Part shown: one piece after another, positions 30,003-64,000 of the stretch
Layout of the letters: every line of letters starts with the position of its first letter
Position numbering within the stretch: position 1 is the first letter of the stretch
DNA from: Alphaproteobacteria bacterium
GTDB taxonomy: Bacteria; Pseudomonadota; Alphaproteobacteria; MPNO01; UBA830
Assembly (NCBI GenBank): GCA_965243135.1
Contig: OZ251539.1
Coordinates: 1,952,001-2,016,000, forward strand
Length of the DNA stretch: 64,000 nt
Direction of reading: 5' to 3'
Made by a program: the position numbers and the translations under genes
The notes under the pieces: generated by a model
Seen by the model: the letters and a program-made list of their open reading frames with translations, nothing else
What the model was told of the DNA's origin: nothing
The model's database searches: none

Positions 30003-31550
30003 TCAGACGGTCTCGAACTCGAACCCGACGATGTTGCGTTCCTCCCGGCCGAACTCCACCCCGATCAGGTGGACCTGTACGCCCGGACGCCGGTACTTGT
30101 CCGCGTAGCCGCGCTCCCGAATCTGCGCCAGAGCCCGGCCTTCCGGCTTCCCGTCCGCGACCTTGAACTCGAACAGGTAGACGTTGCCGCCGTACAGGAC
30201 CGTCAGGTCCGAGCGGCCGCGCGCCGTGCTCTCCTCGGCACGGACGTCCATCCCCGCCGCCACGAAGTGCGAGTAGAACACGCTCGCGTAGTGCGCCTCG
30301 TAGCCCGCCATGCCCGTGTTCGCGTACCACTCGTTCGGGATGCTCGCCAGGAACGCCCGGAACTGCCGCTCAAGGCCCGCGAAGTCGTTCGTCCGCAACA
30401 GGCGGCGCAGCTCCCGGCTCTCCGCCGCGACCGCGACGTCCGGCACCATCGCGCGCAGCAGCCTCCTGTTCAGGCTGAGTTTCACCTCGTAGTTCGGGTA
30501 GTCCAGCCGGTAAAGAAGCGCGTCGTCGTCCAGCTCCTCGTCGGCGATGGTCAGGTAGCCGGTCTGGAACAAAAGCGCTTCGGTCGAGATGTCGTCGACG
30601 TCGAAGGTCGAGAGCAGCTCGTCGTCCGCGATCATGCCTTCCAGGGCCGGCGCCGCGACCCGGCGCCGCGCCAGAAGGTCGGCGAGGAAGGTCGGCGTGC
30701 CGGTCCGGAACCAGTGCGCCTCGAACTGGCGGCGCCGGAAAAGCAGCAGGACATCGTACGGGTTGTAGAGTTTCTCCGCGCCGCGCCAGTTGTAGCCGTT
30801 GTACCAGCGGCGGACCTCGTTCCGGTCCAGGCCCTCGAGTTCCGGGGCGAAGACCGCGTCCAGTTCCGCGTCCGTGTAGCCGCAGATGGACGAGAACTCC
30901 GGCTCCAGCGTGATGTCGATCAGGTTGTTCAGGCCCGAGAACAGGCCCGCCTGCGAAAACTTGCTCACCCCCGTCAGGAAAACGAAACGGAGCTGCTCGT
31001 CGCACGCCTTGATCACCCCGTACAGGCTGCGCAGGAAGTCGCGGTTGGCCCGCGCCAGTTCCCGGTCGCCGAGCGCGTCCAGGATCGGCTTGTCGTATTC
31101 GTCCACCAGAACGACCACCTGCCGCCCGGTGCGCTCGTGCAGGGCCTCGATCAATTCCCAGAAACGAACCGACGCTTCGACAAGGCACGGTTCGAGGCCG
31201 GCGCGTCTTTCCGCCGCCGCCAGTTGCCTTTCCACGGTTACGCGAACCCCGTCCGGGGCGCGGAAATCGCCCCCTCTGCTGAAATCCAGCCGCACGACCG
31301 GATGGCGCGCCGACCAGTCCCACTGGTCGTGCACGGCGAGGCCCCGGAACAACTCCTCGCTTCCCTCGAACAGCTTCTGCAGCGTGTCCACCAGCAGGGT
31401 CTTGCCGAACCGGCGCGGACGCGACAGGAAATAGTACTTGCCCCTCTCGACGAGGCGGCGCATATGGTCCGTCTTGTCGACGTAGTAGCAGTCCATCCCC
31501 CGGATCTCCCGGAGGGAGGTCATCCCGGTCGGCAGCATGCGTTTTTCCAT
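30003..31550 (-). CDS. AAA-ATPase-like / PD-(D/E)XK nuclease protein, copy B
   Basis: RPRRFGKT, DEYDKP, EAHYAS, GRSDL..YLFEFK; upstream TTGACC-18-TATTCT-6-ATG. Confidence 0.9.
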   Translation of the reverse strand: MEKRMLPTGMTSLREIRGMDCYYVDKTDHMRRLVERGKYYFLSRPRRFGKTLLVDTLQKLFEGSEELFRGLAVHDQWDWSARHPVVRLDFSRGGDFRAPDGVRVTVERQLAAAERRAGLEPCLVEASVRFWELIEALHERTGRQVVVLVDEYDKPILDALGDRELARANRDFLRSLYGVIKACDEQLRFVFLTGVSKFSQAGLFSGLNNLIDITLEPEFSSICGYTDAELDAVFAPELEGLDRNEVRRWYNGYNWRGAEKLYNPYDVLLLFRRRQFEAHWFRTGTPTFLADLLARRRVAAPALEGMIADDELLSTFDVDDISTEALLFQTGYLTIADEELDDDALLYRLDYPNYEVKLSLNRRLLRAMVPDVAVAAESRELRRLLRTNDFAGLERQFRAFLASIPNEWYANTGMAGYEAHYASVFYSHFVAAGMDVRAEESTARGRSDLTVLYGGNVYLFEFKVADGKPEGRALAQIRERGYADKYRRPGVQVHLIGVEFGREERNIVGFEFETV

Positions 31551-32029
31551 CCGGCTAGAATAGGCTGCCGCAACGGAAACGGTCAATTGGTTCGAGGCGT
31601 TTGCCACTGCGCCCTTTTTCGCGCCTGCTTCCGCTTTCCGGCTGCCTGAACGCGGGCCTGTCCAGCCGGGAGAGCGCCGGGGCGAGGCGCCGCTCGTGCA
31701 GCTCGGCGGCGCCTGTCGCGCGCGACGGCAACTATGAGGGTTTGTTTCGCCGTTTGGCGCCCCCTCAAGCTTGAAGCGCAACATGCATGGCGGCCGGCCG
31801 ACCTGCAGCGGAAAGGTCAGGCGGTCAATCTCCGTCGATGAACGGCAAGGAGACATGGCCAAAGGCTGCCGACCCGTCGCCCTGAAGGGCAGGCCGAACC
31901 GCGAAGAAGCCGCTCAAGAGCCCGTCCTCGACGCCGGAAACTGCGTCGCAGCCGACGGTCGCGGACGCCGGCGACCGCAATAGTCGCTCGACTTCGAGGT
32001 CTCGCCGGCGGCGAACGGCGTCAGGTGCC

Positions 32030-32309
32030 CCTTGTTCGCGCCCGGTCCGTCGGCGGCGTTCGTTCAGCGACGGTTTCCGGCGCAGCGGCCTGGCGATCGG
32101 CGCCTTGAGCGTCGTCATGTTCTCCTCGTGGCGGCTTCTCCTCGTGGCAGCGTTTTTCGGTTTCGCTCTGCTGCTGCGTGGCCGCGCGCTGTTGTTGCCC
32201 GCGTTCGTCGTTGGCGCGGACGCCATACGCCGACGGCCGCGAGGACGGCCGCGGCCGCGTTGGCGGGAGCGACGGCGAGGCTGGCGATCTCGAAGGCGGC
32301 CATGAGCAT
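32030..32309 (-). pseudogene. Small membrane-anchored coiled-coil protein family, decayed
   Basis: MAAFEIASLAVA.. and RRHEENMTTLKA; paralogues at 47.7-48.0 kb and 50.9-51.2 kb. Confidence 0.5.
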
Positions 32310-32924: not shown

Positions 32925-33262
32925 CGGAAAATCCCGCTAATGCCACTCTCGTCTCGACTGTTTCACGAACGAAGCGGAGCTGCTTGTCGCAAACCTTGAC
33001 CGTCCCGTACGGGCAGCGCAGGAAGTCTCGGTTGGCCAGCGCCAGTTCCCGGTCGCCGACCGCGTCCGGAATTGGCTTGTTCGTCCACCGGAACGACGAC
33101 CTGTTGCCCGGTACGCTCGTGCGGCGTCAGGTGCCGGAAACGGATCGCCGCCGCGCTCGGTGCCGCCGTCCGTCATTCGAGGCTTTTGAGGTTTCGTTCC
33201 GCTTCTCGGGCCAGTTTCACGTTGCCTGCCTTTTGGGCAAGAGCAATGGCAACCTCGAAATC
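32925..33262 (-). repeat. Duplicate of 51860-52197 (TPR gene 3' end plus AAA gene remnant)
   Basis: Near-identical sequence, cut at the IS1202-like end. Confidence 0.85.
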
Positions 33263-33297
33263 TGTCAGTAACAGATGATATGTCCGGTCCATGTACC

Positions 33298-38193: not shown

Positions 38194-40112
38194 GTAGAGT
38201 CGAGGACTGGCGCGTTAGTTTTAGGGTCCGGTGGATGTTCCGTCGCTTTCGCTCCGGGCCTCAGTCCGGCTCCCTTGGCCACGTTTCCAGTCCCCGCTCG
38301 TCAAACCGGACGTGCGGATTTCCCGCGCTTCGGTCAAGATCATGCCTTCGCCCACGGAAAGTTCTTCGTTCGCGTTTTAAGGCGCGTAAGACCTATTTCA
38401 TTCCATTCGTTTGGAAAGTGCGCATACTTTCCTTTACGCACCTTGTGCTTGCGACAGAACCATTGGCGCAGCCGACGGGCTGCGTGTAGATCAACGGCGG
38501 TGTAGGCAGGGCTAACCTGTCCCAATACGAAGTAATTTCCCCATCCAGCTATTACCCTGTTGAGGCGTTTTACCATCTCGTCCGGTTCAAGTTGTCCGTT
38601 CCTTTTCGCCGTCATTTCGCTATCGGCTTATGCTCTGGACGCTTGCCGGGTTGGGACGCGTTCCAATGTAGGATCGTCCCGTGTCCCGACGGTAGTTGCG
38701 TCCAATTCGGTACCCGAGGTACTCTAGTGGTTTCTCAGGTACTCGTAAGCATTGGGTCTTCTCCGCGTTTATCGGCAGTTTCAGCCTTTCCATGAGTGCT
38801 GCCGCCAGCATCTTGCTGGCCGACGCTTTGCCGAGCACTACGCTGTCGTCGGCGTAGTTGACGATCTTCGCGCAGAAGTTTTGAGCGTGCACCTTCCAGC
38901 CCAGAATGAAACGACGCATGGTTGCTGAGTAAAGGGGAGATTGGCGCCCCTTGCGGGGTGCCTTTCCTTTCCCTGCGCGCCCGGTTCGTGCGGCGTTTGC
39001 CGCCTTTGCCGTCGTCCTCCTCCACTGCCATTTCCAGCCATGCCTTGACCCAGCCCAGCATTCGTCCGTCGCTTACGCGACGGGCGACGGACTTCATCAG
39101 TTCCACATGAGGGGCCGAAGTAGTCGGACAAGTCCGCGTCCACCACCTCATGGTGGCCTTGTTTCAACAACTGGTGCACCCGATTGACCGCGTCGAGTGC
39201 GCTTCTTTCCGGTCTGTAGGCGTACTGCTCCGGTTGCAGGTCGGCTTCGAAGATCGGCGACAGTATAAGCATCGCCGCCGTTTGCGCCACCCTGCGCAGG
39301 GGATCCCCAGGGGCCGGAATTTTCCGCGTTGTTTCTTCGGGATCAGAACTTGCCGTACCGCGGCCGGTCGGTAGGTTCCTTCTTTCAGGTCCCGCGCCAG
39401 TTCCTCAAGCCACTGGCCTACTCCTTGCGCTTCCGCTATCGTCGTTCCGTCCGTCCCGGCAGTTCCTCCGTTTCGACGGACGTCCTGCCAGGCTGTGAAC
39501 AGCACTTCGTAGCTCCATACCTTGTCGCATAGCGAGTAGAACCGGAAACTCGGGGATTCCTTCGCTTGTAACGCTGTCTGGAGTCTCCGAACCTTCTCCG
39601 AGGCTGCTAGGCTTCTGCCAGTCCTCATGTCCTTTCCTCCTTCCAACGCTTCTCTTGACCCAAGGCCCCTTTCCTCCACCGGCGTTACCCGGCTTCCCCG
39701 GTACTACGGGCCTCTCCGCCACCCTGCCGGCCCGGCCTGCCCCTCGCGGGGTTCCGGTTGACTCGTGCGCGTCACCGACAGGGCTTCCCGTGTTGCTGCT
39801 TCCTTCATCTTCCATGCGTGCCGACATCACTACCCCGGCGGAAACGGTCGGTGCTCTTGTCGTTCTCTTCCCGACCGTCGGCGGCTTTCCTCTTGCTCCT
39901 GGAGGGTCAGCTTCCGCATTACGCGTTTCGAGGCCTGGTTCACTCGCGTTTCGGCCCGCATGTTTGCTGAGCGGCCTTCGCCGCCCTTTTTGTCCAGAGT
40001 GCTTCAGCCTACATCGTTACCTCCGTAAACCGCCCTGGCTGCTACCAACCGGAACGACAGTTGTTGGGTGGGATTCGCACCCACCAGAAGAAAGCGCCTT
40101 TCCACGGCGCAC
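38194..40112 (-). mobile_element. Group II intron (1919 nt)
   Basis: 5' GTGCG, 3' CTCTAC; domain V-like GCGGGAAATCCGCACGTCCGGTTTGACGAGCG. Confidence 0.9.
38340..39628 (-). pseudogene. ltrA: Group II intron reverse transcriptase/maturase, frameshifted, no endonuclease domain seen
   Basis: RPLGIP, QYAYRP, DADLSDYF, GTPQGAPISPLLSN, YADD, GWGNYF. Confidence 0.85.
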
Positions 40113-41696: not shown

Positions 41697-43235
41697 TCAG
41701 GCGGCCTCGCAGTCGAACCCGACGACGTTGCGCTCCTCGCGGCTGAACTCCACCCCGATCAGGTGGACCGAACGTCCAAGATGGCGGTACTTGTCCGCGT
41801 AGCCCTTCTCCCGCAGTTGCGCGAGCGCGATCCCCTCCCGCCCGCGCTCCACCACCTTGAACTCGAACAGGTAGACGCGCCCGCCGGCGCGGATCGCCAT
41901 GTCGGCGCGCCCCCGGCTGCCGCTGTCCTCGGCCACCGGCTCGAGGCCCTCCATCAGGAAGCAGCTGTGGATGACGCTCGCGTAGTGGGCCTCGTACTTC
42001 GCGACCGGGCTGCTCGCGTACCACTGGTGCGGGATGGCGGCGAAGACGCCGCGGAACAGGGTTTCGAGACGCTTGAAGTCGTTCGCCGCCAGCAGTTCGC
42101 CCAGCCGCAGGCACGCCGTCTTCTTGCGCGCCTCGACCGGGAGCAGTTCTTCCAGCAAGGCCTCGCCCAGGCTCTGGCGCACCTCGAGGTTCGGGTAGTC
42201 CAGCCTGTAGCGCCCGTCCTCCTCGCCGGCGATGGTGAGGTAGCCGGTCTGGAACAGAAGCGCCTCGACCGAGACATTGTCCACGTCGAAGGCCGAGAGC
42301 AGGCTCTCGCTGCCGATCATGCCGTCCAGGTCGGGAGTGGGCAGGTCGCGGCGCGCCAGCGTCTCGACCAGGAAGGTCGGCGTGCCGCTATGGAACCAGT
42401 AGTTGCCGAACTTGCGTTTGTCGAACAGCAGCAGGAGGCCGAACGGATTGTAGAGCTTCTCCGGCCCGCACCAGTTGTAGCCGTTGTACCAGCGGCGGAT
42501 CTCGTCCCGGTCCAGGCCCTCGAGTTCCGGGGCGAAGACCGCGTCCAGTTCCGCGTCCGTGCAGCCGCAGATGGCGCCGTAGCGCTCGTCCAGCGTGATG
42601 TCGTTCAGGTTGTTCAGGCCCGAGAACAGGCCCGCCTTCGAGAATTTGCTCACCCCCGTCAGGAAAACGAAACGGAGATGCCTGTCGCAAGCCTTGATCA
42701 CCCCGTACAGGCTGCGCAGGAAGTCGCGGTTGGCCCGCGCAAGCTCCCGGTCGCCGAGCGCGTCCAGGATCGGCTTGTCGTATTCGTCCACCAGCACGAC
42801 CGTCCGCTGTCCGGTGCGCTCGTGCAGCGTCCTTATCAGGCGCCGGAAACGGACCGATGCCCCGGCGGGACCCGGTTCGAGACCGGCCTGCATCTCCGTC
42901 TCTTCCAACTGCGCTTCTACGGTTTCCCGAACCCCGTCCGGAGTGTCGAAATCGCCCACGCCGCTGAAATCCAGCCGCACGACCGGATAGCGCGCCGACC
43001 AGTCCCACTTGCCGTGCACGGCGAGGCCCCGGAACAGCTCCTCGCTCCCCTCGAACAACTCCTGCAGCGTGTCCACCAGCAGGGTCTTGCCGAACCGGCG
43101 CGGACGCGACAAGAAGTAGTAATCTCCTCCTTCGACGAGGCGGCGCAGATGGTCCGTCTTGTCGACGTAGTAGCAGTCTCTCGTCCGGATTTTCCGGAGG
43201 GAGGTCATGCCGATCGGAAGCATGCGTTTCGTCAT
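41697..43235 (-). CDS. AAA-ATPase-like / PD-(D/E)XK nuclease protein, copy C
   Basis: Same motifs; C-terminal type ending GFDCEAA. Confidence 0.9.
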   Translation of the reverse strand: MTKRMLPIGMTSLRKIRTRDCYYVDKTDHLRRLVEGGDYYFLSRPRRFGKTLLVDTLQELFEGSEELFRGLAVHGKWDWSARYPVVRLDFSGVGDFDTPDGVRETVEAQLEETEMQAGLEPGPAGASVRFRRLIRTLHERTGQRTVVLVDEYDKPILDALGDRELARANRDFLRSLYGVIKACDRHLRFVFLTGVSKFSKAGLFSGLNNLNDITLDERYGAICGCTDAELDAVFAPELEGLDRDEIRRWYNGYNWCGPEKLYNPFGLLLLFDKRKFGNYWFHSGTPTFLVETLARRDLPTPDLDGMIGSESLLSAFDVDNVSVEALLFQTGYLTIAGEEDGRYRLDYPNLEVRQSLGEALLEELLPVEARKKTACLRLGELLAANDFKRLETLFRGVFAAIPHQWYASSPVAKYEAHYASVIHSCFLMEGLEPVAEDSGSRGRADMAIRAGGRVYLFEFKVVERGREGIALAQLREKGYADKYRHLGRSVHLIGVEFSREERNVVGFDCEAA

Positions 43236-43239
43236 TCGA

Positions 43240-44170: not shown

Positions 44171-44173
44171 AAA

Positions 44174-51860: not shown

Positions 51861-54297
51861 GGAAAATCCCGCTAATGCCACTTCCGTCTCGACTGTTTCA
51901 CGAACGAAGCGGAGCTGCTTGTCGCAAACCTTGACCGTCCCGTACGGGCAGCGCAGGAAGTCTCGGTTGGCCAGCGCCAGTTCCCGGTCGCCGACCGCGT
52001 CCGGAATTGGCTTGTTCGTCCACCGGAACGACGACCTGTTGCCCGGTACGCTCGTGCGGCGTCAGGTGCCGGAAACGGATCGCCGCCGCGCTCGGTGCCG
52101 CCGCCCGTCATTCGAGGCTTTTGAGGTTTCGTTCCGCTTCTCGGGCCAGTTTCACGTTGCCTGCCTTTTGGGCAAGAGCAATGGCAACCTCGAAATCCTG
52201 CCGCGCCTGCCCTGTTCGGCCAAGGCCGCGATTTGCCGCCCCCCGGTTATTGTGGGCGTCCGCGTAATCCGGCATGAGCAGGATCGCTTGGTCGCAGTCC
52301 GCCAGCGCGTCATCATATTCATCGAGGCTGTTTCTCGACTCTGCGCGGTTGCTCCAGGCCTCGACGTAATCCGGACGCAGCCGAATTGCCGCGTCGTAAT
52401 CTTCGATCGCTTCCAAAAAACGGGCAAGATGGTGCTTTGCTGCGCCCCGGTTGTTGTAGGCGTCCGCGAAATCCGGTTTGATCCGAAGCGCCTTGTCGCA
52501 ATCCGCGATGACTTCCTCGTACCGTCCGAGGCGATGTTTTGCCGAACCACGGCAGCAGTAGGCCTCGGCGAGGTCTGGAGCCAAACGGATCGCTTCGTCA
52601 TAGTCGATGATCGCTGCTTCGTGCTGTCCGAGTTCCTTCTTGGCGAGGCCGCGGTTGACGTAAACTTCTGCATAACCCGATCTCAGACGGATCGCCTCGT
52701 TGTAGTCGGCGATCGCAGCTTCATGCCGGCCGAGTTCCTTTTTGGCGTTGCCCCGGCTGAAATAGGCTTCTGCATAACCCGGTTTCAGTTGGATCGCTTC
52801 GTCGTAGTCGGCGATCGCCTCTTCGTGCCGGCCGAGTTCGTTCTGGGCGACGCCGCGGCTTAAATAGGCTTCGGCAAGGCCCGGATTGAGCCGGATCGCC
52901 TCGTCGTAGTCGGCGACCGCGGCGTCGTGCTGTCCGAGTTCCTTCTTGGCGACGCCGCGGTTGACGTAAACTTCTGCATAACCCGGTTTCAGACGGATCG
53001 CTTCGTCGTAGTCGGTGATCGCCTCTTCGTGCCGGCCGAGATTTGCCTTAGCGTTGCCCCGGTTGAAATGGGCTTCGGCAAAGCCCGGTTTCAGACGGAT
53101 CGCTTCGTCGTAGTCGGCGATCGCAGCTTCGTGCCGGCCAAAGCCGTCTTTCGCAGTGCCTCGTCCATTGTAGGCATTGGCGAAACCCGGCCTCAGACGG
53201 ATCGCTTCGTCATGGTCCGCCACCGCGTCCTCGTTCCGGCCGAGCGCGGATTTCGCAAGGCCGCGATTGGCGTAGGCCTCGGCATAGTCCGGCTTCAGAC
53301 GGATCGCCTCGTCGTAGTCCGCCACCGCGTCCTCGTTCCGGCCGAGCGCGAATTTCGCAAGGCCGCGATTGAGGTGAGGCTCCTCACGGTCCGGAGCCAG
53401 CCGGACGGCCTCGTCGTAGTCCTTGATCGCCTCCTCGTGCCGGTCGATCCGCCTCTTGGCGTTGCCGCGGTTGTAAAACGCTTCCGTGAAGTCGGACCTC
53501 AGCCGGATCGCCGCGCCGTAGTCTGCTATCGCCTCGTCTATCCGGTCGAGCCCACGCTGTGCGAGGGCGCGAAAAAAATATGCTTCGGCGACGTTGGGCC
53601 GTGCTTGGATGAATTTTCCGTATGCCGCGACCGCACTGGAGTAGTCATCCTGCGAAAAGAACAAGCTCGCCTGATGAAAGAGGGCATCGGGATCTTGCTC
53701 CTCCATAGAACCGGGACGGTCGATCGGAGATCGTACGTTTTCTCCCTGCGCGAAGCCGTACAGATCCCGGAAAAGAGTCGTTCCGCTGACGTCCAAACGC
53801 TTCAACATCTCCCGCAATTCCTGTTTATGCTGCCGCTGGATCAGGATTTCGCGGATGGCGTCCTTGGGAACTGACGGCCGTCCAATTATGAATACGCTGC
53901 GCTGCACCAGAATCCTCTGCATCGCATCGCCGCTGAGCGTGGGTTCCCAATACAACAGCGCGGATTCGTCCTCTCCAGGAGAAAATATTTCCTCGATATC
54001 CAGTCCCTCGTCCGCCCGCAACGCGCGCCCGATATCGTCCGTATTCGTAAGCGTTCGGTCGTGGGGTGGCGACGTTGAGGCCTGCCTCCAGGCAGGGGCT
54101 TCAACCAGACGTCCTTGACCGGGAGGGCGCGTTCGTTTCGGGTACTGCCGCGGCCTACGCCGCCCCTCTGGTTGGCACCCGGCAACAGGTTTCTCGCGAA
54201 GTCCCGGAGAGTAAGCGTTCGGTTGCGAAGCGGGCTGTCGAGCCAGGCGAATCGCCCAGGCCTGGACACTCTTCTTTTGTTCTTGTATACGGCTGCC

Positions 54298-55944
54298 ATG
54301 GCGGTCGAATCTGCACGCACGCTTTCCGGGACCGAGCTGTCGGGCGACGGCCAAGCTCTGGCTGCGGCATGCCGAGCGAATGCGGCTCTCTGCCAGGCGC
54401 TGGAAAGCGCACTCGATAAAGCGGAGAAGTTTCGCCGCGACGCCGAGAGGTGGCAGGGAGCTTTCCACCGGGCGATGGCGCTGATTAGAATCCTGAAAAA
54501 GAGACGCGAGGCGCCGCCCCGAGAGACGGCAGAGAACGAGAGTCTGAAGTCCCGCAGCCGCAGGTTTGCCCGGGAGTTGTTCGGGCGCCGCAGCGAGCGG
54601 CAGCCTACGGCAACCGGTCGACGCCGGGGGCGCAGTCAGGGAACGCCGTCGCACGGCCGCACGCCGCACCCCGAGCTGCCCGTTCGCGAGGAGGAGTCGC
54701 TTCCGGACGAGCGCACGTGTCCGGACTGCGGCAAGGCCTGGGTCTCGAACGGTTGGAAGGACACGGATCTCATCGAGACCAGGACCGTCACCTATGTCCG
54801 GAGGATTCGACGGAAGCGGCTGCGCCCGACCTGTACCTGCCGACCGGAAAAGGAGGCCGTCGGCCCGGCTCCGGCGCGGCTGTTTCCGAACACTCGGTAC
54901 GGAGTTTCCGTCTGGGCGTACGTCCTGGCGGAGAGGTACGGCCTGCACCGTCCGTTGCGCTCGGTCTGCCGCGCGCTGGGTCAGCACGGGCTTGCCATTG
55001 CGCCCGGCACGTTGGCGGACGCTCAGCGGGGATTCCTGCGACTGTTCGAGCCGCTCGACGATGAGATCTCCCGGCGCCTGTCGGAGGCGCCGGTCGTTCA
55101 CGGCGACGAAACAGGGTGGTGGATACGGGAGTTGGGCGAAGAAGACGGCGGCAACGCTCGCGCCTGGGCATGGATCGCCCGGTCGGCGGACGCGGTTCGC
55201 ATCGTTATTCTGCCGTCGCGCAGCGCGGAAGCCGCCCTTGAACTGTTCAGGGGGCTCGGCTCGCCCGAACAGGCGGCTCACCTGGTCTGCGACCGCTACT
55301 CCGCCTACCGGAAGCTGGCGCGCGTCATGGAAGGGTGCATCGTCCTTTCATATTGTTGGGTCCATGCCAGACGGGACTTCATCAACCTTGAGACCGGCTA
55401 CCCGAACCTCGCGAAGTTCGCCCAAAAATGGCTTCGTCACATTGCGGCATTGTACCGACTCAACGCCAGGCGTCTGGCGTGTCCGGGCAACGCCGCCGCC
55501 CAGCGGCGGCTCGCGAGATTCGCCGGAGCGTTCTTCGCGGCGGCGAAAAAGGCACGGGACGCGCTTCCGGAGAGCGCGGCGCAACGCGGCCCTCTGGACT
55601 CCCTGCTACGCCACCGCGACGGCCTGACAGTGTTCGTCGACAACGCAGACGTTCCCATGGACAACAACCCCGCCGAACGCGGCCTGCGCGGCCTCGCGAT
55701 CGGCCGGAAGCTCTCGTTCGGGTCGCATAGCGTGGACGGAGCGCAGTTGGCGGGCATGCTCTATTCCATCTTCGGCACGCTCGAGATGGCCGGCGTCTCG
55801 CCGTACCGCTGGCTACTCGGTTATCTCGATGCCTGCGCCCGGCATCGCGGTCCGCCGCCCGAAGGCCCTGCTGCCTGGCTGCCGTGGGGCGCAGGCGAGG
55901 AGCGTCTCCGCTCCTGGCGTCCCGCTCTCCCCCAAGGACCGTGA
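54298..55944 (+). CDS. IS66 transposase (TnpC-like)
   Basis: LFGRRSER, CPDCG zinc finger, HGDETGW, CDRYSAY, CWVHARR, DNNPAERGLR. Confidence 0.9.
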   Translation: MAVESARTLSGTELSGDGQALAAACRANAALCQALESALDKAEKFRRDAERWQGAFHRAMALIRILKKRREAPPRETAENESLKSRSRRFARELFGRRSERQPTATGRRRGRSQGTPSHGRTPHPELPVREEESLPDERTCPDCGKAWVSNGWKDTDLIETRTVTYVRRIRRKRLRPTCTCRPEKEAVGPAPARLFPNTRYGVSVWAYVLAERYGLHRPLRSVCRALGQHGLAIAPGTLADAQRGFLRLFEPLDDEISRRLSEAPVVHGDETGWWIRELGEEDGGNARAWAWIARSADAVRIVILPSRSAEAALELFRGLGSPEQAAHLVCDRYSAYRKLARVMEGCIVLSYCWVHARRDFINLETGYPNLAKFAQKWLRHIAALYRLNARRLACPGNAAAQRRLARFAGAFFAAAKKARDALPESAAQRGPLDSLLRHRDGLTVFVDNADVPMDNNPAERGLRGLAIGRKLSFGSHSVDGAQLAGMLYSIFGTLEMAGVSPYRWLLGYLDACARHRGPPPEGPAAWLPWGAGEERLRSWRPALPQGP

Positions 55945-56813
55945 GCGGCAGCCCCCGCCGCTACTGCGGGCGCGACTTCTCCGAGGACGAGGTCGACATG
56001 ATCCGCGGCCTGATCGCGAGGGGCGGCCTCCACCGCCGGGCGCTGTCGCGGGAGGTCTGCCGCCGCCTCGACTGGCGCAAGCCCGACGGCGGCCTAAAGG
56101 ATATGAGCGCGCGCGTCGCCATGTTGCGCATGCATCGCGACGGCGTGATCGTCTTGCCGCCGCCAAGGCGCGCGCCGGTCGTCCGCCGTCCGCTCGTGCC
56201 CGGTCCCGCGACCGACAGGCCCCCGTTCCCGACCCCCGAGCGTCTCGCCGATATCCAACCCGTCGCCGTTGAGCCCGTCCGGAACGCGGGCGAAGGCCGC
56301 CTCTGGAACGAGTTCGTCGCTCGCTACCACTATCTCGGCTATTCGACGCTGCCCGGCGCGCAGATGCGATACTTCGTTCGGGCCGCCGGAGGCGAACCCC
56401 TCGCCGTCCTCGGCTTCGGCGCCGCGGCCTGGAAGATCGCGCCGCGGGACAAGCTTGTCGGGTGGGATCCCGAGACCCGCCGCCGCAACCTGCCTCTCGT
56501 GGTCAACAATGCAAGGTTCCTGATCTTGCCGTGGGTCCGGATCAAAAACCTCGCGTCCTGCATCCTTGCCATGGTTGAATGTCGCCTGCCCGACGATTGG
56601 GAAGGCCGCTACGCGTTGCGCCCGGCCCTGATGGAGACCTTCTGCGAGAGCACGCGCTTCGAAGGAACCTGCTACCGGGCCGCCAACTGGACCAAGGTCG
56701 GCAAAACGCAGGGCCGCGGCAAGCTCGATACCCGGAAAGAACGCGCTCTCCCGGTCAAGGACATCTGGCTGAAACCCCTGCGCCGGGACTGGAGGCGGCT
56801 CCTCAATGAATAG
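55941..56813 (+). CDS. DUF4338 (DruA-like) domain protein
   Basis: WNEFVARYHYLGY..GAQMRY..VVNNARFLI..NLASCIL..ETF..GTCYRAANW..GKTQGRG; GTGA overlap with the transposase stop. Confidence 0.82.
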   Translation: MSGSPRRYCGRDFSEDEVDMIRGLIARGGLHRRALSREVCRRLDWRKPDGGLKDMSARVAMLRMHRDGVIVLPPPRRAPVVRRPLVPGPATDRPPFPTPERLADIQPVAVEPVRNAGEGRLWNEFVARYHYLGYSTLPGAQMRYFVRAAGGEPLAVLGFGAAAWKIAPRDKLVGWDPETRRRNLPLVVNNARFLILPWVRIKNLASCILAMVECRLPDDWEGRYALRPALMETFCESTRFEGTCYRAANWTKVGKTQGRGKLDTRKERALPVKDIWLKPLRRDWRRLLNE

Positions 56814-57639
56814 GCCATCACCCCACGACCGAACGCTTACCCGTATTCAGCACGAACAACTTGCCGTCGCGCTCGGGATTTTCGCTGGCGAACCACAAGG
56901 CGACAAGAGCGCTCCATGTGAAATCAAGCAATCCGGTCGCAGCGCCGAAATGCTGGAGCTTCGCAAGCAGCTGAAGCGGGGTCGCTTCCTTGCCATGTTC
57001 CACTCCGAAACCGTCCCGCCGTGCCCGCCCGATGATGTCACGGTGGTAATCGATGCAATCCTTCGCCGAAACCTGTCTGTCGCTGCGCTTCAGACGGCGG
57101 ACGGCGGACGACTCCAGATCCCAGCCGGAATCCGCCTGACCTCTGAAAGCGTATGACCCCGGACTGGACGTGTTGTCCAAAATTTCGTTCAGATAGCTAT
57201 CGAGCATCGGTTGACCCCGGAACATGCGCCCGAACACGTGAAGTGGTTGGCTTCCTCCGGCTCCTGTGTGCGTTCCGATGATTGCCGGTTCGAGAAGGGC
57301 AGAGGCCGGGAACTGGACAGGCTGACGTACGCCTCGCGCAGTGCCTGCCGCCTGTCGGGTTCACGCAGACGCCGCTGCCGGTCGCCGGAAACCCGCGACT
57401 GTAAATGCGCGATCCGCTCGGCCGGGCATGACAGTTTGTGAGAGCTTCGGGATTCATGGCGCCGCGGACGCAATGGTTGATGTTGGCGGCCATCCGTGAG
57501 TTCGCCATTTCGTCGTCTCTCTCTTCCGCCGTTTGATGACTTCATCCAGCGGAACCTTCGGGAAGCCATTGACCGGCCGCATGCTCTTGGCAGGCGGACA
57601 TGCTTTCCGTTTCCCGCCGCTCGGCGCAATGCATTGTCA

Positions 57640-57875
57640 TTCGCCGCCCAGGAAGTCCACAGCTTTCGTCGCGAAGCTTGCCCCGTTCCTGACCTCGCAT
57701 TCCCAAATTACGAGAACATCCCATTTCGCGCAACTGCGCCTGGTGTTCGGCGTCTCGAACGGTGTTCCTCTCCAGTTTCGGCAGCCAGTAATCCCGGTTC
57801 GACCCGGGCTGCCGGGAGATCCTGCAACCGGGGTGCTGACGCCGGAAACGGCCGTGCACGAAGATTGCCTTCCTC
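57640..57875 (-). pseudogene. vsr: Very-short-patch repair endonuclease fragment
   Basis: AIFVHG..RQHPGC..PGSNRDYWLPKLERN..RD..VIWECE. Confidence 0.7.
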
Positions 57876-59565: not shown

Positions 59566-61101
59566 ATGACGAAACGCATGCTTCCGATCGGCTTTTCCTC
59601 CCTCCGGGAGATCCGGGGGATGAACTGCTACTACGTCGACAAGACGGACCATGTGCGCCGCCTCGTCGAAGGGGGCAAGTACTATTTCCTGTCGCGTCCG
59701 CGCCGGTTCGGCAAGACCCTCCTGGTGGACACGCTGCAGAAGCTGTTCGAGGGAAGCGAGGAACTGTTCCGGGGCCTCGCCGTGCACGACAAGTGGGACT
59801 GGTCGGCGCGCCATCCGGTCGTGCGGATCAGCTTCGGCGGGGGCAATTTCGACTCCCCGGACCTCGTTCGGGAAAACGTGGAAGACCAGTTGGAGGAAAC
59901 TGAGCGGCTGGCCGGCCTCGAACCGGGTCCCGCCGGGGCGGCGGTCCGTTTCCGGCGCCTGATAAGGGCGCTGCACGAGCGCGCCGGGCAGCGGGCGGTC
60001 GTTCTGGTGGACGAATACGACAAGCCGATCCTGGACGCGCTCGGCGACCGGGAACTGGCGCTGGCCAACCGCGGCTTCCTGCGCGGCTTCTACGCGATGA
60101 TCAAGGAGTGCGACGAGCAGCTCCGTTTCGTTTTCCTGACGGGGGTGAGCAAGTTCTCGAAGTCGGGTCTGTTCTCGGGCCTGAACAACCTGAACGACAT
60201 CACGCTGGACGAGCGTTACGGCACTATCTGCGGCTGCACGGACGCGGAACTGGACGCGGTCTTCGCCCCGGAACTCGAGGGCCTGGACCGGGACGAAATC
60301 CGCCGCTGGTACAACGGCTACAACTGGCTCGGACCGGAGAGGGTCTACAACCCGTTCGGCCTCCTGCTGCTGTTCGACAAACGCAAGCTCGGCAACTACT
60401 GGTTCGAGAGCGGCACGCCGACCTTCCTGATCGAGACGCTGGCGCGCCGCAACCTGCCCACTCCCCGCCTGGACGGCATGATCGGCAGCGAGAGCCTGCT
60501 CTCGACCTTCGACGTGGACAGGATGTCGGTCCAGGCGCTTCTGTTCCAGACCGGCTACCTCACCATCGCCGGCGAGGAGGACGGGCGCTACCGGCTGGAC
60601 TACCCGAACCTCGAGGTGCGCCAGAGCCTGGGCGAAGCCCTGCTGGAAGAACTGCTCCCGGCCGAGGCCCGCGAGGAGACGGAGAACCTGCGGCTGGGCG
60701 AATTGCTGGCGGCGAACGACTTCAAGCGCATCGAGACCCTGTTCCGCGGCATTTTCGCCGCCATCCCGCACCAGTGGTACATGAACAGCCCCGTCGCGAA
60801 GTACGAGGCCCACTACGCGAGCGTCATCCACAGCTGCTTCCTGATGGAGGGCCTCGAACCGGTCGCCGAGGACAGCGGCAGCCGGGGGCGCGCCGACATG
60901 GCGATCCGCTCCGGCGGGCGCGTCTACCTGTTCGAGTTCAAGGTGGTGGAGCGCGGGCGGGAGGGGACCGCGCTCGCGCAGCTGCGGGAGAAGGGCTACG
61001 CGGACAAGTACCGCCGTCTCGGGCGTTCGGTCCACCTGATCGGGGTGGAGTTCAGCCGCGAGGAGCGCAACGTCGTCGGCTTCGACTGCGAGGCCGCCTG
61101 A
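59566..61101 (+). CDS. AAA-ATPase-like / PD-(D/E)XK nuclease protein, copy F
   Basis: ATG follows TTGACG-17-TACCCT; full motifs. Confidence 0.9.
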   Translation: MTKRMLPIGFSSLREIRGMNCYYVDKTDHVRRLVEGGKYYFLSRPRRFGKTLLVDTLQKLFEGSEELFRGLAVHDKWDWSARHPVVRISFGGGNFDSPDLVRENVEDQLEETERLAGLEPGPAGAAVRFRRLIRALHERAGQRAVVLVDEYDKPILDALGDRELALANRGFLRGFYAMIKECDEQLRFVFLTGVSKFSKSGLFSGLNNLNDITLDERYGTICGCTDAELDAVFAPELEGLDRDEIRRWYNGYNWLGPERVYNPFGLLLLFDKRKLGNYWFESGTPTFLIETLARRNLPTPRLDGMIGSESLLSTFDVDRMSVQALLFQTGYLTIAGEEDGRYRLDYPNLEVRQSLGEALLEELLPAEAREETENLRLGELLAANDFKRIETLFRGIFAAIPHQWYMNSPVAKYEAHYASVIHSCFLMEGLEPVAEDSGSRGRADMAIRSGGRVYLFEFKVVERGREGTALAQLREKGYADKYRRLGRSVHLIGVEFSREERNVVGFDCEAA

Positions 61102-61174
61102 ACGGCTTCCCGTCAGCCGCCTCCGCGAAAGAACGCCGCCCGCAGCGCGGGACAGGCCTGCCGCCGCCGACTTC

Positions 61175-61209
61175 TTGACGGCTCCGGCGCGGCGGCCTAC
61201 CCTCTTCGA
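61175..61209 (+). promoter_or_regulatory. sigma70-like leaderless promoter
   Basis: TTGACG-17 bp-TACCCT-CTTCGA-ATG; no Shine-Dalgarno. Confidence 0.65.
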
Positions 61210-62742
61210 ATGACCAAACGCATGCTGCCGATCGGCTTGACCTCCCTCCAGAAAATCCGGGGGGAGATGGACTGCTACTACGTCGACAAGACGGACCATG
61301 TCCGCCGCCTTGTCGAGGGTGGTCAATATTATTTTCTGTCGCGTCCGCGCCGGTTCGGCAAGACCCTGCTGGTGGACACGCTGCAGAAGCTGTTCGAGGG
61401 AAGCGAGGAACTGTTCCGGGGCCTCGCCGTGCACGGCAAGTGGGACTGGTCAACGCGCCATCCTGTCGTGCGGATCAGCTTCGGCGGGGGCGATTTCGGC
61501 GACCCGGACGGAGTTCGGGAAGAAACGGAATCGCAACTGAAGGCGGCGGAGAGGCTAGCCGGCATCGAGCCGGGCAGCGCCAGAGTTTCGGTCCGCTTCC
61601 GGGAACTGATCGCTGCCCTGCACGAACGCACCGGGCAGCGGACAGTGGTTCTGGTGGACGAATACGACAAGCCGATCCTGGACGCGCTCGGCGACCGGGA
61701 GCTGGCGCGGGCCAACCGCGACTTCCTGCGCAGCCTGTACGGGGTTATCAAGGACTGCGACGAGCATCTCCGTTTCGTTTTCCTGACGGGAGTGAGCAAG
61801 TTGTCGGGTCTGTTCTCGGGCCTGAACAACCTGCGCGACATCACGCTGGCTCCGGAGTTCTCGGACATCTGCGGCTGCACGGACGCGGAACTGGACGCGG
61901 TCTTCGCCCCGGAACTGGAGGGCCTGGACCGGGACGAAATCCGCCGCTGGTACAACGGCTACAACTGGTGCGGGCCGGAGAAGCTCTACAATCCGTTCGG
62001 CCTCCTGCTGCTGTTCGCCGAGCGCAGGTTCAGCAACTACTGGTTCGAGAGCGGTACGCCGACCTTCCTGATCGAGACGCTGGCGCGCCGCAACCTGCCC
62101 ACTCCCCGCCTGGACGGCATGATCGGCAGCGAGAGCCTGCTCTCGACCTTCGACGTGGACAGGATGTCGGTCCAGGCGCTTCTGTTCCAGACCGGCTACC
62201 TCACCATCGCCGGCGAGGAGGACGGGCGCTACCGGCTGGGCTACCCGAACCTCGAGGTGCGCCAGAGCCTGGGCGAGGCCCTGCTGGAAGAACTGCTCCC
62301 GGACGAGGCCCGCGAGGAGACGGAGAACCTGCGGCTGGGCGAATTGCTGGAGGCGAACGATTTCAAGCGTCTCGAAACCCTGTTCCGCGGCATTTTCGCC
62401 GCCATCCCGCACCAGTGGTACATGAACAGCCCCGTCGCGAAGTACGAGGCCCACTACGCGAGCGTCATCCACAGCTGCTTCCTGATGGAGGGCCTCGAGC
62501 CGGTGGCCGAGGACAGCGGCAGCCGGGGGCGCGCCGACATGGCGATCCGCTCCGGCGGGCGCGTCTACCTGTTCGAGTTCAAGGTGGTGGAGCGCGGGCG
62601 GGAGGGGACCGCGCTCGCGCAACTGCGGGACAAGGGCTACGCGGACAAGTACCGCCGTCTCGGGCGTTCGGTCCACCTGATCGGGGTGGAGTTCAGCCGC
62701 GAAGAGCGCAACGTCGTCGGGTTCGACTGCGAGGCCGCCTGA
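61210..62742 (+). CDS. AAA-ATPase-like / PD-(D/E)XK nuclease protein, copy G
   Basis: 510-aa ORF, tandem with F. Confidence 0.9.
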   Translation: MTKRMLPIGLTSLQKIRGEMDCYYVDKTDHVRRLVEGGQYYFLSRPRRFGKTLLVDTLQKLFEGSEELFRGLAVHGKWDWSTRHPVVRISFGGGDFGDPDGVREETESQLKAAERLAGIEPGSARVSVRFRELIAALHERTGQRTVVLVDEYDKPILDALGDRELARANRDFLRSLYGVIKDCDEHLRFVFLTGVSKLSGLFSGLNNLRDITLAPEFSDICGCTDAELDAVFAPELEGLDRDEIRRWYNGYNWCGPEKLYNPFGLLLLFAERRFSNYWFESGTPTFLIETLARRNLPTPRLDGMIGSESLLSTFDVDRMSVQALLFQTGYLTIAGEEDGRYRLGYPNLEVRQSLGEALLEELLPDEAREETENLRLGELLEANDFKRLETLFRGIFAAIPHQWYMNSPVAKYEAHYASVIHSCFLMEGLEPVAEDSGSRGRADMAIRSGGRVYLFEFKVVERGREGTALAQLRDKGYADKYRRLGRSVHLIGVEFSREERNVVGFDCEAA

Positions 62743-62840
62743 ACGGCTTCCCGTCAGCCGCCTCCGCGAAAGAACGCCGCCCGCAGCGCGGGACAGGCCT
62801 GCCGCCGCCGACTTCTTGACGGGCGCGGCGGCCTACCCTC

Positions 62841-64000
62841 TGACGAAATGCATGCTCGGCTTGACCTCCCTCCGGAAAATCCGGACGAGGGACTGCTACT
62901 ACGTCGACAAGACGGACCATGTGCGCCGCCTCGTCGAAGAGGGCGATTACTATTTCCTGTCGCGTCCGCGCCGGTTCGGCAAGACCCTTCTGGTGGACAC
63001 GCTGCAGGAGCTGTTCGAGGGAAGCGAGGAGCTGTTCCGGGGCCTCGCCGTGCACGGCAGGTGGGACTGGTCGACGCGCCGCCCGGTCGTGCGGATCAGC
63101 TTCGGCGGGGGCAATTTCGACACTCCGGACTTCGTTCGGAAAGATGTGGAGGACCAGCTGGAGGAGACGGAGCGGCTGGCGGGCCTCGAACCGGGGCCTG
63201 CCGAGGCGTCGATCCGTTTCCGGCGCCTGCGCTGCACGAGCGCCCCGGGCGGCGGGCGGTCGTTCTGGTGGACGAACAAGCCGGTCGCGCTCGGCGACCG
63301 GGAACTGGCGCTGGCCAACCGCGACTTCCTGCGCGGCTTCTACGCGATGATCAAGGACAGCGACAAGCATCTCCGTTTCGTTTTCCTGACGGGGGTGAGC
63401 AAGTTGGCTGGCCTGTTTTCGGGCCTGAACAACCTGCGTCACGCTGGCTCCGGAGTTCTCGGACATCTGCGGCTGCACGGACGCGGAACTGGACGCGGTC
63501 TTCGCCCCGGAACTCAAGGGCCTGGACCGGGACGAAATCCGCCGCTGGTACAACGGCTACAACTGGCGCGGGCCGGAGAAGCTCTACAATCCGTTCGGCC
63601 TCCTGCTGCTGTTCGCCGAGCGCAGGTTCGGCAACTACTGGTTCGAGAGCGGCACGCCGACCTTCCTGGTCGAGACGCTGGCGCGCCGCGACCTGCCCAC
63701 TCCCCGCCTGGACGGCATGACCGGCAGCGAGAGCCTGCTCTCGACCTTCGACGTGGACAGGGTCGAGGCGCTTCTGTTCCAGACCGGCTACCTCACCATC
63801 GCCGGCGAGGAGGACGGGCGCTACCGGCTGGGCTATCCGAACCTCGAGGTGCGCCGGAGCCTGGGCGAGGCCCTGCTGGAAGAACTGCTCCCGGCCGAGG
63901 CCCGCGAGGAGACGGAGAACCTGCGGCTGGGCGAACTGCTGGAGGCGAACGACTTCAAGCGTCTCGAAACCCTGTTCCGCGGCATTTTCGCCCCGCATTT
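62841..64000 (+). pseudogene. AAA-ATPase-like / PD-(D/E)XK protein, copy H, eroded
   Basis: Colinear with G but with multiple frameshifting deletions; promoter spacer shortened. Confidence 0.85.

Follow-up and report, generated by a model that had tools for sequence, protein, structure and literature searches.

Why should the many copies of one gene in a bacterial genome be alike and freely mixed over their first half, and fall into sharply separate types over their second? The question is raised by a 64,000-nucleotide stretch of DNA from an alphaproteobacterium (contig OZ251539.1, positions 1,952,001 to 2,016,000; hereafter the window), which holds eight copies, A to H, of a ~1.64-kb unit encoding a protein with the Pfam domains PF09820 (AAA-ATPase_like) and PF08011 (PDDEXK_9), the combination formerly called DUF1703. 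A preliminary description of the window had noticed near-invariant blocks shared by these copies, with discrete variants between them in incongruent combinations, and had attributed the pattern to cassette-like gene conversion that diversifies a sensor-nuclease repertoire with pseudogenes as donors. Our analysis points to a different answer, which we consider probable: the copies belong to a large duplicated DUF1703-type family in which homology-dependent gene conversion limits exchange to the AAA+ module, and whose products would be nucleases of defence or genetic conflict.

The copies were located by a six-frame motif search for the five shared blocks of the preliminary description and were then translated at each place. 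Six of the eight (A, B, C, D, F and G) are intact and two (E and H) are pseudogenes; the DNA has a GC content of ~0.67. In the following rows, types 1 and 2 refer to the C-terminal half of the protein.

Copy A: coding sequence 1-695, conserved 5' leader to ~744, minus strand; coding sequence truncated by the window start, intact in the chromosome, 509 aa, DCEAA type
Copy B: 30003-31550, minus strand; intact, 515 aa, type 1 (FEFETV end), identical to database protein P0022
Copy C: 41697-43235, minus strand; intact, 512 aa, type 2 (DCEAA end)
Copy D: 45557-47098, minus strand; intact, 513 aa, type 1
Copy E: 48750-50274, minus strand; pseudogene, type 1
Copy F: 59566-61101, plus strand; intact, 511 aa, type 2, at the head of the head-to-tail array F-G-H; matched by P0101
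Copy G: 61210-62742, plus strand; intact, 510 aa, type 2, 5' end like those of D and E; 100% identical to P0089
Copy H: coding sequence 62840-64000 (unit from 62790), plus strand; pseudogene, type 2 in its middle part, truncated by the window end
Decayed family fragment: 32968-33155, minus strand; ~77% identical to gene positions ~370-570
Decayed family fragment: 51903-52090, minus strand; same part of the gene as the preceding fragment
Short decayed family fragment: 51510-51604, plus strand; ~72% identity

The reading frames of B, C, D, F and G run unbroken from start to stop (510-515 aa), and the intactness of A is given by a database protein (P0078, 509 aa, ending in DCEAA) that is identical to it over 231 of 231 residues. 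In copy E a 5-nt deletion that directly follows VLVDEYDKP shifts the frame; a further three deletions, of 6 nt each, are in frame. In copy H the ATG has become CTG, the upstream motif contains deletions and three further deletions shift the frame. G and H have in common an in-frame 6-nt deletion (VSKLSGLF as against VSKFSKAGLF; alignment columns 658-663, ~61790 in G and ~63390 in H), the mark of the most recent tandem pair despite the different variants that their 5' ends hold.

The existence of eight copies with shared blocks was borne out, FLSRPRRFGKTLLVDTLQ and GLFSGLNNL each being found in 8/8 by the six-frame search. The other three blocks were each found in seven copies: VLVDEYDKP is missing from H, where a deletion and frameshift fall, and RRWYNGYNW and LLFQTGYLTI are missing from A, which is cut off by the window start. 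In translation, the variants between the blocks are distributed as the preliminary description had assigned them for segment 1 (REIRGM in B and F; RKIRTR in A, C and H; KIRGEM in D, E and G) and for segment 3 (RSLYGVIK in B, C and G; RGFYSVVK in D and E; RGFYAMIK in A, F and H). Its three variants of segment 4, EPEFSSICGY (B, D), DERYG (C, F) and APEFSDICGC (A, G, H), also stand, to which a fourth that it did not list, DPRFGAICGY in E, must be added. In residue numbering, the variable segments occupy 14-20, 91-135, 172-183, 214-225 and 271-285. The C-terminal halves do split into two types, with FETV in B, D and E and DCEAA in C, F and G; H groups with C, F and G over alignment columns 831-1280, so that its DCEAA call concerns the middle part of the gene, its C-terminus lying beyond the window.

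We aligned the eight units with MAFFT (1669 columns) and took columns 1-830 as the 5' half. The pairwise homoplasy index (PHI), a check proposed in the preliminary description, gave p=0.0005, the floor of 2000 permutations, in six of six subsets including the five intact copies alone; over all eight copies, with 86 informative sites, the permutations averaged 0.463 and the observed value was 0.362. Of the site pairs, a fraction of 0.46 was incompatible in the 5' half and 0.06 in the 3' half. Partitions of the copies in the 5' half switch every 10-100 nt, among DE, DEG, BF, ACH, BC, BG, BCG, AFH, CF(E), AGH, BD and FG, and from column ~830 on the partition is nearly always BDE against CFGH. Maximum-likelihood trees of the individual segments, likewise among the proposed checks, conflict with one another: the 3' half separates (B,D,E) from (C,F,G) at 100/100, segment 1 unites (D,E,G) at 93/91, segment 2 unites (D,E,F) at 97/97 and (B,G) at 77/80, and segment 4 separates (B,D,G) from (C,E,F) at 85/93.

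Exchange can also be read from shared stretches of DNA. Identical tracts across the 3' types measure 76 nt for D and F (over 39 polymorphic sites), 91 nt for E and G, 53 nt for A and F and 47 nt for B and C, and such cross-type tracts are generally ~40-90 nt long, lack polarity and carry later point differences. No identical tract exceeds 176 nt, and there is thus no sign of very recent large exchange events. PHI, the switching partitions, the segment trees, the tracts and the decay of linkage described below all agree in attributing the incongruent combinations of variants to recombination or gene conversion among paralogues, as the preliminary description had held; on these sequence comparisons, recombination between paralogues is well supported.

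The two halves of the gene differ as sharply in divergence. Every pair of copies has a DNA identity of 0.84-0.95 in the 5' half; in the 3' half the values are 0.885-0.97 within a type and 0.68-0.71 between types. Synonymous divergence (dS) is 0.19-0.34 in the 5' half for all ten pairs of intact copies, and in the 3' half 0.07-0.16 within and 0.46-0.53 between types, figures compressed, with dN/dS inflated, by a GC content at third codon positions (GC3) of ~0.9. We placed the copies in trees with 75-78 homologues from other genomes (L029, L052 and L070, where wrong open reading frames had been taken, were omitted). In the tree of N-terminal halves the window copies form one clade (Shimodaira-Hasegawa-like approximate likelihood ratio support 100), with paths of 0.18-0.38 among themselves and ~0.7-0.8 to the nearest outsider. 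In the tree of C-terminal halves the two types lie 1.08-1.17 apart, comparable to the 1.01-1.16 that separate them from other phyla, and their joint clade has a support of 7.7. The short N-half paths beside the deep C halves indicate that the ATPase halves have been kept alike within the genome and that the nuclease halves are old lineages.

The 5' half abounds in invariant DNA runs of 24-31 nt (columns 123-151, 189-219, 264-287 and 801-829 among others), and of the 12 invariant runs that measure 18 nt or more in the five intact copies it has eight and the 3' half four. The block RRWYNGYNW sits within a 29-nt run that is invariant among the tested copies and is the final common anchor before the type-specific 3' part.

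RRWYNGYNW block in B: 30786-30812, minus strand
RRWYNGYNW block in C: 42471-42497, minus strand
RRWYNGYNW block in D: 46334-46360, minus strand
RRWYNGYNW block in E: 49515-49541, minus strand
RRWYNGYNW block in F: 60301-60327, plus strand
RRWYNGYNW block in G: 61942-61968, plus strand
RRWYNGYNW block in H: 63540-63566, plus strand

We were interested in how far this pattern extends beyond the window. The chromosome-wide analysis covers annotated proteins, with one representative per 90% cluster and the best 120 clusters per search, and takes a 6,103,318-bp contig as the chromosome of the window because the window's own proteins map there. A search with D returned at least 7,999 proteins at E≤1e-50; 58 of its best 120 clusters lie on this contig, four of them flagged as the window's own proteins, and 13 more come from a search with G, for a total of at least 71 clusters at 90% identity. 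The 10 multi-member clusters looked up comprise 36 distinct sequences on the contig, each present in both NCBI and ENA, which brings the chromosome to at least 97 distinct family proteins or fragments.

The discrete segment variants of the window recur among these chromosomal copies. In 60 rows, 17 of the 24 combinations of three segment-3, four segment-4 and two C-terminal classes were observed, and the classes are weakly associated (Cramer's V 0.37, 0.33 and 0.28; permutation p 0.042, 0.094 and 0.146). Linkage between common amino-acid variants in the N half decays from an r2 of 0.31 at 1-5 residues to 0.07 at 6-15 and 0.02-0.06 further apart; in the C half it holds at 0.31-0.51. Among 73 rows, N-half identity is unimodal with a median of 0.81, C-half identity is bimodal and the two are hardly correlated (r=0.16); the N halves form one cluster, and the C halves form three types of 33, 28 and 11 members with one singleton. 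The association of positions with C type is ~0 as far as residue 195, rises to 0.1-0.3 at residues 196-285 and reaches 0.8-1.0 from residue 286 on. By these sequence measures the AAA+ module (residues 1 to ~285) is a single shuffled pool, and the linker and nuclease (residue 286 to the end) are three non-exchanging types. In the layout of Knizewski 2007 (PMC1913061), as given in the relevant passages of that paper, the boundary at ~286 separates the AAA+ lid (the 'YNP' sensor-2 region) from the helical linker, which begins there.

The preliminary description had the exchange diversify the family, a claim that our data do not sustain. The net effect in the 5' half is as much one of homogenization as of diversification, and within-genome variability, which tracks family-wide variability (Spearman 0.58), is mostly below it, as at residues 151-165 (0.09 against 0.47 bits). 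At residues 166-180, 211-225 and 256-285 it reaches or surpasses that of the family as a whole, which hints weakly at maintained diversity in segments 3 and 4. The ratio pN/pS exceeds 1 in 7 of 34 fifteen-codon windows (codons 16-30, 211-225, 271-285, 346-360, 376-390, 406-420 and 451-465), reaching 2.05, with small counts and with recombination and GC3 bias as confounders. We claim nothing about positive selection from these values, and the data give no rigorous sign of it.

The ends of the unit bear on how the family grew. In self-BLAST comparisons, homology begins 27-61 nt upstream of the ATG and ends at the stop codon between types or ~42 nt past it within a type. F, G and H stand head to tail, separated by 108-nt spacers composed of the 3' tail of one unit and the leader of the next.

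F-G spacer: 61102-61209, 108 nt, plus strand; unit tail, then the conserved 5' leader, whose TTGACG-N17-TACCCT ends 6 nt short of the ATG

This leader recurs upstream of A, C, D, E and F, and upstream of B in diverged form; every intact copy retains the motif TTGAC(G/C)-N17-TA(C/T/A)(C/T)CT ending 6 nt before the ATG, which would suit the predicted promoter of a leaderless transcript. Terminator-like hairpins between F, G and H were discarded, as they lie on the wrong strand for these genes. C and F have ~600 nt of additional upstream homology in common; D and E share ~275 nt upstream and ~100 nt downstream, and both are flanked on either side by an identical spacer motif, as expected for relics of a tandem array. 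Inverted repeats pairing the unit ends were absent from four of four units examined, and unit boundaries differ between pairs. The arrays, the shared flanks, the spacer relics and the lack of inverted repeats argue for tandem and segmental duplication and not for transposition. We rejected an insertion sequence (IS) or transposon as the identity of the unit: it has no terminal inverted repeats, inconstant ends and no transposase domain, and its copies are not near-identical.

The domain architecture named in the preliminary description was recovered by Pfam in all copies for PF09820 and, wherever the C-terminus is present, for PF08011. PF09820 scores 192-211 bits in A, B, C, D, F and G, and 141 and 136 bits in the pseudogenes E and H, against a cut-off of 26.1 (E-values 1e-39 to 1e-62 over all copies); PF08011 scores 47-69 bits in B, C, D, E, F and G against a cut-off of 25.5 (1e-12 to 1e-19). 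The predicted protein has an N-terminal AAA+ ATPase module with an unusual Walker A, RPRRFGK[ST], a helical linker and a C-terminal PD-(D/E)XK nuclease. The Walker B sequence DEYD and the nuclease motifs E...D...ExK...Q, the set of Knizewski 2007, are present in the window translations. Walker A G50-K51, Walker B D150-E151 and nuclease residues D448, E461 and K463 do not vary among the 44 family sequences compared, and the chromosomal copies retain K51 in 68/68, D150 and E151 in 73/73, D448 in 69/71, E461 in 72/72 and K463 in 72/73. Further matches were faint. AAA_22 and AAA_16 reached E ~0.01 in Pfam, below their cut-offs, and the middle region alone (213 aa) had no Pfam match; sequence and profile searches of the PDB gave nothing below E=0.4; and PHROGs gave a marginal match (E 6e-4) to a 64-residue family of unknown function.

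Homologues in other genomes provide the functional context. A scan of species-representative genomes found at least 515 relatives, and the best 80, at 57-62% identity, come from metagenome-assembled genomes of Latescibacterota, Vicinamibacterales and other Acidobacteriota, Gammaproteobacteria, Binatia, Gemmatimonadota, Spirochaetia and Myxococcota. Relatives at 80-93% also occur on other contigs, of sister strains or species. The family tree interleaves members of different phyla, and this implies horizontal movement of the gene. The pairs L045/L066, L038/L077 and L037/L074 are nearest neighbours from different phyla on very short branches, and a Gemmatimonadota copy is nested in Latescibacterota copies at 0.016-0.036 changes per site; such branches indicate recent transfer between phyla. 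Additional full or truncated copies lie within 3 kb at 13 of the 80 loci, and PHI is also significant for nine copies in OZ241901.1 (p=0.0005) and five in JAJDVZ01 (p=0.004).

Taking the largest flanking open reading frame per side at 78 loci (139 frames; L074 and L080 left out), we found cas genes at 15/78 loci, restriction-type or similar genes at 7/78 and transposases or integrases at 8/78. At cas loci the family gene shares the direction of its neighbours and lies within the locus or at its edge. In two loci it sits between a Cmr/Csm6 module and GSU0053/GSU0054, as in the order Cmr5, RAMP, Csm6 HEPN, family gene, GSU0053, GSU0054; in two others it sits between Cas3 and Cas2-Cas4/Cas1, as in Cas3 HD, family gene with a truncated copy, Cas2, Cas4/Cas1. 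A further order is Cas4/Cas1, Cas2, array, family gene, and in two of eight loci checked the gene directly follows a CRISPR array (of 5 and 14 repeats). The window itself contains no CRISPR array.

Cas-associated family locus L006: 2526-2864; other phylum
Cas-associated family locus L009: 1355-2404; other phylum
Cas-associated family loci L049, L022, L051 and L041: other phyla

On plasmids, where 66 of 72,556 records carry the gene under no other name than 'ATP-binding protein' or 'AAA family ATPase', one copy lies among toxin-antitoxin genes and a tandem pair lies beside a methyltransferase/HNH pair. From these neighbourhoods a role in defence or conflict is plausible. A literature search under the family names found no functional study and no description of linkage to cas, and in the main text of a survey of CRISPR-linked genes (bioRxiv 10.1101/270033) the family was not recognized, the single passage on an 'ATPase' concerning other proteins.

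The family grew by tandem and segmental duplication, of which the F-G-H array, the extra flanks of D/E and C/F and the spacer motifs of D and E are the traces, and variants of the AAA+ module reassort in tracts of ~10-180 nt; we propose that they do so by ordinary homology-dependent (RecA-type) ectopic gene conversion and unequal crossing-over. RecA-dependent exchange requires roughly 20-30 identical base pairs, and mismatches suppress it. Such a requirement would account at once for free exchange in the 5' half, for its halt where identity becomes too low (the window's two types are ~70% identical in DNA from residue ~286) and for the role of RRWYNGYNW, the last long shared block, which may act as a hinge joining any ATPase mosaic to any nuclease type. 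The pseudogenes E and H and the small fragments would be decaying members and not dedicated donors. Every intact copy would be expressed from its own conserved leader, and the product is predicted to be a cytoplasmic NTP-controlled nuclease for defence or genetic conflict. This account calls for no programmed machinery, and none was found in the window, where the nearby transposases are remnants of IS66, IS630, IS110 and IS4/Tn5-like elements.

Several observations weigh against this account, first among them those on the trees. The approximately unbiased (AU) test rejects the 3'-half grouping in just two of five 5' segments (p=0.025 and 0.0086), picked post hoc; the remaining three give p=0.10, 0.21 and 0.17 and the whole 5' half p=0.052, so that the incongruence seen in trees is weaker than that seen by PHI. 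At the protein level, with 80 rows, grouping the N halves of B and D or of C, F and G is unrejected (p-AU 0.72 and 0.71), in uninformative tests whose quick free search also overlooked better trees. The strong contrast between N and C halves is absent from the two other genomes examined and may be particular to this lineage. As to function, the largest neighbours are exclusively housekeeping or unknown genes at 49/78 loci, and adjacency to cas is dispersed over the tree (10 changes for 14 rows of 75), which suits general clustering in defence islands as well as a specific partnership. With D and G as queries, PADLOC-DB v2 gave no family at E≤0.01, RADAR and PARIS included, and NCBIfam has no model for the family. 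A promoter scan rejects the upstream motif in F-H and accepts only the site of B, one being found against 1.1 expected. To these must be added the scope of the data: for this chromosome the DNA comparisons cover the eight window copies, the chromosome-wide analysis covers cluster representatives from a contig that we take to be the right one, and the dS values come from a GC3-biased genome.

Even with these reservations, duplication with homology-limited exchange accounts best for the data, and it can be held with more or less purpose attached to the exchange. We lean towards reassortment that is mostly neutral, a by-product of the many similar copies, with diversity at segments 3 and 4 maintained to some degree. 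A bolder version makes the family a germline repertoire, in which ~100 autonomous ATPase-nuclease immune genes with reassorting AAA+ surface segments coupled to three nuclease modules would offer many trigger and effector combinations at once, as the counterpart of a plant cluster of nucleotide-binding leucine-rich-repeat (NLR) genes, possibly alongside CRISPR-Cas and with segments 3 and 4 as specificity sites. We regard this version as unlikely, though worth stating.

Could the 1.64-kb unit instead be a selfish mobile or homing element that spreads or converts through breaks made by its own nuclease? The very high copy number, the horizontal transfer implied by the intermixed phyla, the varied positions of the gene inside and beside cas loci and its carriage by some plasmids would all suit such an element, and a DUF1703 homologue is stated, in a passage of PMC6387759, to be part of the Medea element of Tribolium. 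However, the units have the ends described above, with no pairing inverted repeats, boundaries that vary by pair and long extra flanks in some pairs; the copies are 65-95% identical and not near-identical; head-to-tail arrays and spacer relics suit unequal crossing-over; no transposase-type domain is present; and the gene is rare both on plasmids and in phage records, where all 27 of 50,697 matches are unannotated metagenome fragments. We judge the selfish element improbable.

Programmed cassette variation, the reading of the preliminary description, would have a few expressed genes rewritten one-way from silent or pseudogene donors so as to diversify a sensor-nuclease repertoire. Such one-way conversion of an expressed gene from silent donors operates in pilE/pilS and vlsE. 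The reassorting multi-residue variants between invariant blocks are what it predicts, and the pseudogenes E and H and the three fragments bear variants that are also present in intact copies. Against it, six of the eight window copies are intact and have the same upstream leader; 66 of the 71 cluster representatives are at least 450 aa long, with five shorter, and catalytic residues are nearly always kept, so that intact genes far outnumber possible silent donors. Intact copies with leaders of their own leave no place for a single expression site fed by silent cassettes. No site-specific recombinase or special copy-linked sequence was found, the nearby transposases being borne by insertion sequences; the shared tracts are short and carry later point differences, recent directed events not being visible; and the N-terminus is not like a signal peptide, hence there is no surface antigen to vary. 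The donor role of the pseudogenes is thus not upheld, and the cassette model as a whole is quite improbable.

The same evolutionary mechanism could act on secreted effector nucleases in host association, as proposed for Cardinium. According to passages of PMC6387759, signal peptides are predicted for 10 of 25 Cardinium paralogues and the expansions occur in two insect symbionts, and three loci related to the window copies have neighbours with eukaryote-like repeats (ankyrin at L052, WD40 at L062 and kelch at L079). In the six intact window copies, however, a crude signal-peptide test found no hydrophobic run of at least seven residues within the first 45, and the ATPase fold begins at residue 7. 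Two other Cardinium strains lack the signal peptides by the same source, and the cas, restriction and toxin-antitoxin neighbourhoods suggest conflict over nucleic acids inside the cell. The effector is very improbable for the window family.

It is still less probable that the mosaics are artefacts of an assembler switching between paralogues. The invariant 24-31-nt blocks are possible misjoin points for graph-based short-read assemblers. A 6.1-Mb contig unbroken despite at least 71 such repeats would, however, be hard to obtain without long reads, and 110 clusters from other contigs show the same recurring variant classes in many combinations. PHI signals also occur among the paralogues of other genomes and of published ones (passages of PMC6387759), the deletions of E and H span 5-11 nt and are not homopolymer slips, and the variant tracts switch at many points and not just at the longest shared blocks.

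The weakest alternative, to which we assign practically no weight, dispenses with exchange and invokes stronger purifying selection on the 5' half with parallel substitution at tolerant positions, as family-wide conservation of the invariant blocks, the correlation of within-genome with family-wide variability and the depression by GC3 bias of synonymous divergence in blocks rich in two-fold codons would allow, but a single genealogy with homoplasy would not make compatibility and linkage depend on distance, nor are the identical multi-site tracts across both types, synonymous sites included, the monophyletic N halves on short branches beside C halves as deep as inter-phylum distances, or a between-type dS in the 5' half about half that of the 3' half explained by it.

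The family shares the window with other elements, and many IS fragments together with a split candidate defence gene give the window a conflict context of its own. An IS66-family element at 54047-56840 is bounded by perfect 22-nt terminal inverted repeats (54047-54068 and 56819-56840), unlike the four ATPase-nuclease units examined, which have none. It carries a transposase (54115-55941) and a DUF4338/DruA-like open reading frame (55884-56810), and it splits an FRG-domain gene (56821-57237 and ~52111-53919, minus strand) that matches the PADLOC candidate PDC-S15, with profile positions 48-164 on one side and 193-264 on the other, and continues into a long tetratricopeptide-repeat (TPR) region. 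A second, fragmentary IS66 transposase piece has a DruA/DUF4338 fragment nearby (21687-22535 and 23919-24341), which suggests that the DUF4338 frame is a regular passenger of this IS66 element.

A scan of the window with Rfam gave a group II intron as its sole match: the remnant of RNA domain D1-D4 at 39944-40086 (minus strand; RF02003, 76 bits), beside a reverse transcriptase fragment at 38738-39151 (minus strand). A diversity-generating retroelement was considered and rejected as the source of the segment variants, that fragment belonging to the intron and the variants being discrete alleles shared between copies. Positions 16000-29700 are rich in transposase remnants, including an IS4-like DDE_Tnp_1, an IS630-type pair of helix-turn-helix and DDE_3 genes (20029-21142) and Tn5-like Tnp_DNA_bind fragments (25376-25900 and 27602-28729); few recognizable intact genes occur there, and GC drops to 0.58-0.62 at 16-20 kb. 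Two tandem autotransporter genes (5514-10340 and 10582-15540, minus strand) encode proteins of 1609 and 1653 aa that are 73% identical and nearly identical over their first ~360 residues, another partly homogenized pair of paralogues. A 158-bp unit is repeated three times at 96% identity (4077-4551) between the ArgJ and PPIC-type isomerase genes.

How does the family compare with systems already described? Knizewski 2007 (PMC1913061) defined it, in the passages that concern it, as AAA+ plus PD-(D/E)XK, a layout that the window proteins match, and likened the architecture to an Mrr nuclease fused to a NACHT ATPase; the relevant part of Steczkiewicz 2012 records nine copies in Methanospirillum hungatei. 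The closest precedent is that of Siozios et al. 2019 (PMC6387759), whose pertinent passages describe at least 25 paralogues in Cardinium cCpun that 'readily recombine' by network, RDP4 and PHI analyses, the same signal in a midge Rickettsia, and ten or more copies in 9.8% of Pfam species, leaving the function open with secretion suggested for those 10 of 25 paralogues. As there, we find a two-domain architecture, many diverged paralogues, intragenic recombination, partial copies and signs of horizontal acquisition, and the present genome has both marks of a recombining DUF1703 expansion, namely at least ten paralogues per genome and statistical intragenic recombination.

The differences from the Cardinium and Rickettsia expansions, as far as those passages describe them, lie in scale and in pattern. 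There are at least 71 clusters (at least 97 sequences) here against 25 Cardinium paralogues, and the median amino-acid identity of the N halves is 81% against an average of 39%. Those passages do not report exchange limited to the AAA+ module beside three nuclease types. Signal-peptide-like N-termini, predicted on part of the Cardinium paralogues, were absent from the six intact window copies by our crude test, and relatives of the window copies often lie beside cas genes, unlike in the Cardinium description. A recombining DUF1703 expansion is thus already published; what is new is how large the family is, how sharply exchange stops at a module boundary before three nuclease types, and how repeatedly relatives lie near cas genes.

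This matters since the DUF1703-type ATPase-nuclease is, with the thousands of proteins returned by the search with D, among the more widespread two-domain proteins, and the genome offers a natural experiment: ~100 copies with catalytic residues kept, a clean boundary between AAA+ and linker, and three nuclease types, with relatives that, in at least four other phyla, adjoin CRISPR-cas loci or lie within them. Were it a defence system, the family would add to the present catalogues a single-gene ATPase-nuclease class that they lack, and would represent a bacterial immune repertoire kept by paralogue recombination.

Among known defence systems, a review (PMC10952713) lists, in the part that deals with this domain, the PF09820-type ATPase in RdrA of RADAR, in PARIS and in Old-tin. 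In RADAR an ATPase controls an effector, as it would in the present proteins. The effector here is fused, unlike the separate deaminase RdrB; no constant partner gene adjoins the copies, and a deaminase domain is absent from the window open reading frames and the 139 flanking frames scanned. Plant resistance-gene clusters and bacterial expansions of STAND NTPases diversify by unequal crossing-over and gene conversion. Like these, the present family is large, tandem and fast-evolving, fuses an NTPase to an effector and gains new combinations by exchange; unlike them, it has no leucine-rich-repeat, TPR or WD40 sensor, the ATPase module itself being shuffled, and its matches to the STAND-like AAA_16 and AAA_22 are the sub-threshold ones noted above. 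A literature search on gene conversion among bacterial anti-phage NLR-like paralogues gave nothing relevant among the matches listed.

In Neisseria pilE/pilS and Borrelia vlsE, one expression site receives one-way transfers from many silent promoterless cassettes, and the product is a surface antigen. The likeness lies in variable segments within conserved blocks, segmental conversion and pseudogene-like partial copies, and the difference in genes that are here mostly complete and apparently autonomous and that encode a predicted cytoplasmic enzyme. The ribosomal RNA operons, the tuf genes and copies of insertion sequences evolve in concert by ectopic gene conversion. Here, as in those families, homology-dependent conversion keeps parts similar, produces mosaics and ends at high divergence; copy number is far above that of usual bacterial protein families, and several variants per segment persist at intermediate frequency and have not been homogenized away. 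Should the family turn out to serve something other than defence, it would still be a clear case of sequence identity setting the bounds of concerted evolution within a gene.

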